From sequence record MG748547: a stretch of 64,000 nt of DNA, one strand, 5' to 3'. The stretch's first letter is position 1, and the number at the start of each line of letters is the position of its first letter. A model generated the notes under the pieces. It was given only the letters and a program-made list of their open reading frames with translations. It searched no databases and had not been told where the DNA came from. Both the position numbers and the translations under genes were made by a program. Origin of the DNA: Escherichia phage EP75. Shown here one piece after another: positions 53,136-53,729 of this stretch.

Positions 53136-53213
53136 CAACTTTGATGGCTCTAGGACTAAAGATCCCGCGTCACCCATAGACTTGGTTTATAAAATCTAGA
53201 GCCATCAAAGTTG
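53136..53213. repeat. Inverted repeat, 17-18-bp perfect stem
   Basis: CAACTTTGATGGCTCTA (53136-53152) pairs with TAGAGCCATCAAAGTTG (53197-53213). Confidence 0.85.
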
Positions 53214-53593
53214 CAACCAATGTCGCAACTCGCACTTCAGCGTCTTCGTCTCGCTTCAGCACTTGTCCTCTACGTTCGGACCAAACGAGGCTGGCCGACA
53301 GAAACATAACACCACTCATCACTAGAGCGAGGATGTGGTTGATAGCCACGATGTTACGTCTCTGTCGTAGAGTGATCACACTTGTCAGGATGATCACTGT
53401 TTTGCGAACTTGAAAATACTGCGCCTGTCTCGGGTTTCCCCTTAGTTCGGCCTCTCATTGTTCGTCTGGTCAGGGAGCTACCCTTGATGACCAGCTTATT
53501 TTGAGATCTTCGCCAGCACCCACTAGTGTCTAGAATATGTAGGTGTCGAGGTCTGCAAGGCATTGCCCTATTTCATACAACGCTCTCTCAAGT

Positions 53594-53729
53594 GCGCAAA
53601 TCGAAGTTCTCTGGGCTTAACAGGTTCGACCCAACATGTTGTATATCGCCTAACTTGCTCATGGGACGGACACATCTGTGTACAGACCTTGAGGGTTAAA
53701 AGATATACCCAGAGAACTTCGATTTGCGT
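53594..53729. repeat. Inverted repeat, 21-bp perfect stem with about 92-nt loop
   Basis: CGCAAATCGAAGTTCTCTGGG (53595-53615) pairs with CCCAGAGAACTTCGATTTGCG (53708-53728). Confidence 0.85.

Follow-up and report, generated by a model that had tools for sequence, protein, structure and literature searches.

What are the long perfect inverted repeats beside the transfer RNA (tRNA) genes of Escherichia phage EP75, and what keeps them in place? We analyzed a window of this phage, that is, a whole stretch of 64,000 nucleotides (nt) of sequence record MG748547, numbered from its first letter, in which no long open reading frame (ORF) is found between ca. 51435 and 54927 and where the flanking genes lie on the minus strand, like the tRNA genes. 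An original prediction, made from the letters alone, had singled out repeats between 53136 and 53729 and had suggested that they could be RNase III processing sites or, alternatively, double-stranded RNA baits or footprints of small mobile palindromes. Comparison with related phages indicates that the long repeats are very probably RNA-level structured stems under selection for pairing, and that their most likely role is to mark where a long RNA precursor is cut or protected. They are not mobile DNA.

Long inverted repeats in the tRNA locus

All of the inverted repeats listed in the original prediction were recovered at the same positions by a repeat search and by an independent scan of the window. 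Described here in minus sense, I1 (53128-53221) has a perfect core of 18 base pairs (bp) (53136-53153 with 53196-53213), which lengthens to 26 nt at 88% (53128-53153 with 53196-53221) around a loop of 42 nt. Past the core, a 4-nt bulge is followed by five further pairs (GGUUG/CAAYC), and the loop bears a conserved motif, UAUGGGUGAC, at 53169-53178. I2 (53595-53728) has 21 of 21 positions paired (53595-53615 with 53708-53728), forming a closing stem of 21 to 22 bp around an interior of ca. 92 nt for which a branched fold is predicted. I4 (53775-53863) has 16 perfect pairs (53775-53790 with 53848-53863; 19 nt at 95%), and its tip in EP75 is a T-arm-like minihelix (GGCGGGUUCGAGUCCCGC). The location given earlier for I3 (54267-54349) was right, but its length was not, the stem being 13 bp perfect (54276-54288 with 54328-54340; 22 nt at 86%) rather than 12 bp. 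I5 (52008-52079) has 14 perfect pairs (52008-52021 with 52066-52079) and a conserved loop, and only 6 nt separate the end of this stem from the 5' end of tRNA-Tyr downstream.

Perfect inverted repeats of at least 12 bp with a loop of at most 200 nt occur seven times in the 64 kb, and five of the seven fall within the ca. 3.5-kb locus (51.4 to 54.9 kb). In 30 shuffles of the window, 0 to 2 such repeats were found per 64 kb (ca. 0.7), the longest stem being 14 bp, so that the repeats exceed what chance would give. The hairpin folds gave z values of -4.4 to -7.0 against dinucleotide shuffles.

Pairing is kept in related phages

Homologous loci were compared in 13 annotated phages and several contigs of the IMG/VR database. 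The covariation panels were limited to 13 to 15 distinct sequences; scans of IMG/VR and of metagenomes added one or two contigs, most of their matches being GenBank phages already in the set. Kuttervirus phages of the ViI-like type (Ackermannviridae) match the window at 91 to 97% identity over 24 kb. The ca. 650 bases that hold I1 and I2 were found at one place per genome in 221 to 270 records of Ackermannviridae phages from several genera, with identities of 81 to 100% in Kuttervirus and 69 to 77% in Agtrevirus/Aglimvirinae and Taipeivirus, and a partial match in Limestonevirus. The closest over the 651 bases from 53100 to 53750 were Salmonella phage Vi01 (99.2%) and Escherichia phage 241 (100% over 630 bases). 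Both I1 and I2 are syntenic and single copy in Kuttervirus, Agtrevirus/Aglimvirinae, and Taipeivirus, and I1 is present additionally in Limestonevirus.

Within the 18-bp core of I1 (alignment A3, 13 distinct sequences), 98.7% of the cells were paired and 7 of the 18 pairs had changed on both sides, with a covariation score that was reached by none of 500 column shuffles. As a control, the partner strand was slid by one to three columns, and pairing fell to 31 to 48%. A stepwise path can be followed in one I1 pair, which is G-C in most phages, G.U in PC3, and A-U in a contig from an uncultivated virus genome (UViG). The I2 stem (alignment A5, 14 distinct sequences) was paired in 95.7% of cells and had four pairs changed on both sides, and here too a stepwise pair is found, within Kuttervirus, which reads C-G in the window and U-A in Det7, with the intermediate U.G in S118. 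The other stems behave along similar lines. In Klebsiella phage Magnus the loop of I5 is retained and its 14-bp stem is wholly different yet still complementary, while in phiD3 I5 has two minus-sense U.G pairs. I4 offers compensated changes such as UUUGAGG/CCUCAAA to UUAGAGG/CCUCUAA, and the I3 sequence is 74 to 99% conserved in relatives. The compensatory change in relatives that the original prediction had proposed as a check on the stems is seen, with pairing kept and the stems syntenic.

The selected structure lies in minus sense

Given that the perfect stems of the window fold equally well on either strand, the relatives were used to choose between the two. A minus-sense A.C cell is a plus-sense G.U, and among the non-Watson-Crick cells of the I1 and I2 core stems, read in minus sense, there were 24 G.U versus a single A.C (12 versus 1 in the I1 core and 12 versus 0 in I2). 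The minimum free energy over 52734-54930 was -808.6 kcal/mol in minus sense versus -707.4 kcal/mol in plus sense, the consensus fold of the alignment (alifold) gave -152 versus -137, and the plus-strand GC skew was negative throughout the locus. In addition, an eight-phage alignment of 52920-53600 yielded a consensus fold of ca. 25 helices, many of them changed on both sides and with almost no A.C cells, a scarcity that is of limited weight because the folding program itself favours G.U. Because wobble asymmetry, fold energies, and GC skew agree on minus sense, the selected structure is in the strand that carries the tRNA genes, most simply as RNA. Pairing kept by compensatory changes, together with wobble that is almost exclusively minus sense, shows that selection acts on the folded minus-sense strand.

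Fixed bases, covarying distal halves, and exchangeable tips

Across genera, the mean column identity was 0.98 and 0.96 in the basal halves of I1 and I2 and 0.80 in the distal halves, which covary; in the enclosed parts it was 0.53 for the I1 loop and 0.81 for the I2 interior. The sequence-fixed basal part of the stems amounts to 9 to 13 bp, with 13 invariant pairs in I2. When the minimum-energy fold of the I2 interior in the window was imposed on the other clade, 55 to 70% of it was paired, which is poor support for that fold.

The same basal stem can carry different tips. That of I4 has five in the relatives, ranging from a 4-nt loop to 97 nt. In the window and SF02 the tip measures 51 to 57 nt and holds the T-arm-like minihelix, in fGh-Ecl02, PC3, and cp16 it is reduced to a loop of 4 nt, and elsewhere it is unrelated and 58 or 97 nt long. 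The I1 loop is short in Dickeya phage phiD3 (Limestonevirus). In S118, the 44-nt loop of I5 has been replaced, giving a perfect 18-bp palindrome made of TCTACCGCCGCGTGGATT and AATCCACGCGGCGGTAGA back to back (locus L001, 2523-2558). A perfect palindrome of this kind is the signature of template-switch "quasi-palindrome correction." Mosaic breakpoints between phages were located at stem bases, at 53729, 53792, 53846, 54276, and 52003.

I1 and I4 share the consensus CA[A/T]CTTTGA[G/T]G...C[A/C]TCAAAG[A/T]TG (as RNA, CA[A/U]CUUUGA[G/U]G...C[A/C]UCAAAG[A/U]UG), and the 3' arm of I1 in Klebsiella phage cp16 is identical at 18 of 19 positions to the 3' arm of I4 in the window; no second pair of stems sharing a consensus in this way was found elsewhere in the 64 kb. 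Judged by their sequences, the I1 and I4 stems are paralogous. The loop of I1 keeps a motif like UAUGGGUGAC in Kuttervirus, Taipeivirus, and Agtrevirus. In Erwinia phage phiEa2809, a hairpin with a similar loop motif and a different stem, possibly homologous to I1, follows the conserved block at 53261-53296 (see below). Candidate partners for the loop motif, sought in the window, occurred at chance level.

Exchange of hairpins and insertion of genes were also seen close to the stems. At 53371-53400 and at the homologous sites in three other loci (L003, L005, and L009), hairpins have stems and loops that are unrelated from phage to phage, namely, an 8-bp GUGAUCA-type stem in the window and a AUGAAGAGCA/UGUUCUUCAU stem with a 50-nt loop in Det7-type phages, where the loop could encode a 20-amino-acid peptide. 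A free-standing HNH endonuclease gene is found at the I3 base in SenM-2 and pSal-SNUABM-02 (L002, 4874-5395; L011, 4043-4519). Its insertion site corresponds to ca. 54267-54276 of the window, ca. 10 nt are common to both junctions, and the I3 copy beyond it is diverged (74 to 86% identity). On the practical side, no inverted repeats in these genomes are longer than the stems, and the sequences of several GenBank records start or break off within them. Inside I1, the record of maane starts at ca. 53203 and those of allotria, AV101, and LHE287 have ends at ca. 53151, 53198, and 53155, while that of GEC_vB_GOT ends at ca. 53711, in an I2 arm; the chance expectation for record ends in a 94-nt target is ca. 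0.16 of 270 records. These ends likely reflect assembler breaks at inverted repeats of k-mer length and, less probably, a physical end.

A proposed role as processing stems

The repeats are very probably the closing stems of discrete hairpin RNA modules in an apparently noncoding minus-strand array of ca. 3.5 kb that ends at a terminator, and we propose that stems of 18 to 22 bp would act as punctuation in a long precursor of tRNAs and small RNAs. The double-strand-specific RNase III of the host would cut the stems and so separate neighbouring RNAs, the ends that it leaves would be finished by the tRNA-processing enzymes, and stems left uncut or half cut would also shield RNA ends from exonucleases. 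Taken as a whole, we give this model an even chance of being correct, and slightly less than that to RNase III being the cutting enzyme. RNase III cuts the double-stranded stems that bracket ribosomal RNAs (rRNAs) and takes part in the maturation of T4 tRNAs (PMC4810235), and its valley accommodates ca. 22 bp (PMC6212723). The choice of this enzyme is based on that precedent and on stem length, as well as on the positions of I5, 6 nt from tRNA-Tyr, and of I4, which abuts the 3' end of a tRNA-like module. Set against a length of ca. 20 to 22 bp (PMC6212723), I2 has 21 to 22 bp, I1 has 18 bp plus the 4-nt bulge and 5 bp, and I4 has 16 to 19 bp, and for these three the length class assigned in the original prediction was appropriate. 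Its view of the stems as RNA-level elements of a tRNA locus was borne out. Its suggestion that they release small elements has to be qualified, since the same stem can close only a 4-nt loop in relatives and the inner part is thus not always a product. Because it persists while the tip shrinks to a tetraloop, the stem looks like a site rather than a product.

Several points weigh against this proposal or loosen its details. With 14 bp in I5 and 13 perfect bp in I3, two of the stems fall below the length class of RNase III. RNase III is only weakly sequence selective, and the near-invariant basal stems suggest, unlike this enzyme, a sequence-specific partner. Both the UAUGGGUGAC motif in the loop of I1 and the I2 interior are conserved, and the I1 and I2 modules may be functional products, not mere punctuation. 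The covariation of I2 is mostly one split between two clades and hence reflects few independent events. G.T wobble would likewise be tolerated in single-stranded DNA folded in the same sense. Finally, a literature search found no transcriptome or noncoding RNA study of Kuttervirus, CBA120, or Ackermannviridae.

In the principal alternative, RNase III leaves the stems intact and their role is structural: they would close or clamp the ends of small RNAs that are stable and functional, or of the domains of a single very large RNA. Such stems would tie 5' to 3' ends, keep exonucleases out, and offer conserved loops to a partner. The motif of the I1 loop, kept across genera and possibly in phiEa2809 despite an entirely different stem sequence, is what such a role would preserve, as are the identity of the I2 interior (0.81), the sequence invariance of the basal stems, and the ca. 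25 covarying helices around I1. The basal consensus common to I1 and I4 suggests a specific binder, and rnaC of T4 is a stable RNA of similar build. However, I4 and I5 stems are kept even where the tip shrinks to 2 to 4 nt in some phages, perfect duplexes of 18 to 22 bp are, from general knowledge, hard to shield from RNase III in enterobacteria, and no binding partner was identified. We regard such purely structural helices as possible but rather unlikely, both as end clamps and as platforms for a partner, and they are not exclusive of punctuation by RNase III.

A more ambitious interpretation, which we consider doubtful, is that the 2.4 to 3.5 kb upstream of and between the tRNA genes form an undescribed, family-wide, ornate structured RNA system, in which I1, I4, and I2 would be docking or cutting sites for a dedicated sequence-specific factor and the tips would be exchangeable cargo, including tRNA-like minihelices. 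The factor could be phage encoded, for example, by the invariably adjacent gene at 55132-55701. With the same tentativeness, the system might be a functional counterpart of GOLLD/ROOL or of T4 rnaC/rnaD that goes beyond processing spacers.

A role at the level of DNA, with extruded hairpins or cruciforms serving replication, recombination, or homing-endonuclease targeting, or with quasi-palindromes maintained by template switching, is very unlikely. It could account for the mosaic breakpoints at stem bases, the HNH gene that two relatives carry at the I3 base, and the loop-less perfect palindrome of I5 in S118, which is as expected of quasi-palindrome correction; moreover, of all DNA mismatches G.T is the mildest. 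However, breakpoints would fall at stems in any case, because the stems are the best-conserved sequence for homologous exchange. The wobble asymmetry agrees with the transcribed strand of the tRNA genes, the entire 2.2 kb, beyond the repeats, folds better in minus sense, and many short imperfect helices nearby covary that would not extrude in duplex DNA.

The mobile-palindrome footprints offered in the original prediction are rejected. Each arm matches only its own hairpin in the window, even with three mismatches allowed, so that no copies of the kind left by miniature inverted-repeat transposable elements (MITEs) were found there, and a search of 185,579 bacterial genomes with the I2 arms returned three unrelated palindromes, about what chance would give by our estimate. 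Tips do differ in presence or absence among relatives, as those of mobile elements might, but the stems are always at the same syntenic site in the genera examined and only the tips vary, no target-site duplications, dispersed copies, or related bacterial copies were seen, and because the arms are unique in each genome, occurring at one place, we find a MITE-like origin scarcely credible.

Equally improbable is that the region encodes small proteins and that the repeats are incidental or regulatory (terminators or attenuators). A 75-amino-acid ORF at 53170-53397 (minus strand), which runs through the 5' arm of I1, matches phrog_23307, and short hypothetical ORFs are annotated here in several records, but the annotated ORFs vary by record, indels of 1 to 2 nt occur in conserved blocks, and the 75-amino-acid ORF keeps its frame in close relatives only, falling apart in Det7, PC3, SF02, and the Klebsiella phages into pieces in different frames, for which reason phrog_23307 is probably a family built on spurious ORF calls. 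As intrinsic terminators, I1 and I2 were ruled out: their loops are 42 and 92 nt, neither has a U run after the 3' arm, and they did not appear in the terminator scan.

The surrounding RNA array

The minus-strand region from 51435 to 54927 can be described as an RNA array made of tRNAs, tRNA-like modules, and many conserved hairpins, without a convincing gene, given that no ORF is kept across genera and that the plus-strand GC skew is negative. ARAGORN and the Rfam tRNA model identify tRNA-Tyr (51918-52001), tRNA-Asn (52397-52472), and tRNA-Met (52658-52733), all on the minus strand, with encoded CCA and Rfam scores of 57 to 75 bits. The locus is closed by a strong intrinsic terminator at 51482-51504 (minus strand; a 10-bp stem and then a U run), found in the terminator scan, and the record of phage Magnus annotates a terminator at the homologous site. 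An Rfam scan at the gathering score and at E<=10 passed these three tRNAs only, with no GOLLD, ROOL, Y RNA-like, transfer-messenger RNA, or ribozyme match. The hairpins themselves matched only eukaryotic microRNA-precursor models of Rfam, with scores far under the threshold that indicate no more than a generic long hairpin.

Ten T-arm-like motifs (GGUUCRANUCC with a 5-bp stem) are present in the locus, all of them on the minus strand and three of them in the tRNAs. By motif and fold, a tRNA-like module at 53865-53987 (minus strand) combines an acceptor stem of 7 bp with a T-arm and a pair of long hairpins and is followed by CCA; it abuts I4, and its 3' part is conserved in all relatives. Other such modules are located at 54404-54470, 52264-52391, and ca. 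51565-51650 (minus strand), with acceptor stem and T-arm and with long extra hairpins or without an anticodon arm. Neither an acceptor stem nor a T-arm was found in I1 or I2, the T-arm build being limited to the I4 tip and the neighbouring modules. At default settings tRNA finders reject the tRNA-like modules, and the records of kage and rabagast annotate one as a 135-nt "tRNA-OTHER."

Nowhere in the locus is conservation deeper than in a block at 53261-53296 (minus strand), CCAGCCUCGUUUGGUCCGARCG..AGAGGACAAGU, ca. 40 nt 5' of I1. Erwinia phage phiEa2809 has these 36 nt at 97% identity, and almost every column of the block is invariant in alignment A4. A likeness of UGGUCCGA within this block to the Ro-binding strand of Y RNAs was dropped, being a post hoc 8-mer without Rfam support.

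The repeat scan and the comparison with relatives also revealed I6 (51726-51916, minus strand), a 12-bp long-range stem (51726-51737 with 51905-51916) that closes a cassette with a T-arm motif. Relatives have a tRNA-Ser (and Det7 a pseudo-tRNA) between the terminator-proximal module and tRNA-Tyr, which the window lacks; its position (51729-51915) is taken in the window by the I6 cassette of ca. 167 to 187 nt (compared loci, L001 of S118, 1822-2432, and L003, 1303-1482). Between tRNA-Met and tRNA-Asn, a 47-amino-acid ORF (52471-52614, minus strand) has a Shine-Dalgarno-like GGUGAGG and matches phrog_6110. The records of S118 and SenM-2 annotate this ORF, and it may be a genuine small gene within the RNA array.

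Significance and comparison with known systems

Phages of the Ackermannviridae (ViI, CBA120, Det7, and Klebsiella and Dickeya phages) are widely used as model and therapeutic phages. Annotation of their genomes leaves this 3.5-kb stretch blank or fills it with random small ORFs, yet it is conserved like the neighbouring genes and rich in covarying RNA helices, and on these grounds ca. 2% of the phage genome would be given to structured RNA beside the tRNAs. The same puzzle has stood for decades in the case of T4 rnaC and rnaD. The long stems provide precise, mutable handles on the processing of the array and on the importance of its products in infection. No description of the locus was found in the literature; the GenBank records of kage and rabagast label one I2 arm "repeat_region."

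Correia/ERIC-type repeats are transcribed into long hairpins that are recognized by RNases. They are, however, dispersed multicopy mobile elements, whereas the stems described here are single copy and syntenic.

GOLLD and ROOL are large, highly structured noncoding RNAs that are often phage borne and located beside tRNA genes (PMC12286853, PMC5737381). The EP75 region resembles them in scale, tRNA context, and number of covarying helices. It differs in having no Rfam match at E<=10 and in modules that are swapped between phages, and it may be an array rather than one RNA.

A closer parallel is found in T4 rnaC and rnaD (species 1 and 2), which are likewise small structured RNAs beside and co-oriented with phage tRNA genes. 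By comparison of folds, the T-arm modules of the window, with acceptor stem, T-arm, and long hairpins, are similar to rnaC, and the tRNA cluster of T4 contains a homing endonuclease gene, as relatives of EP75 have an HNH gene at I3. In contrast, I1 and I2 lack both T-arm and acceptor stem, comparison with T4 revealed no homology in sequence, and the array is much larger, with ca. 2.4 kb upstream of the tRNAs versus ca. 260 nt downstream of them in T4.

The rRNA operons of Escherichia coli, the early RNA of T7, and the tRNA cluster of T4 are processed by RNase III at stems of about two turns that flank or separate functional RNAs in one transcript. The stems of EP75 are similar in length and setting, as they lie among the tRNA genes of a phage with an enterobacterial host and are conserved by pairing. 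They differ from them in being unusually perfect and invariant in their basal halves and in closing only a tetraloop in some cases and conserved interiors in others. What is new in comparison with these systems is that a phage tRNA array holds conserved modules closed by stems, in which the base is fixed and the tip can be swapped.
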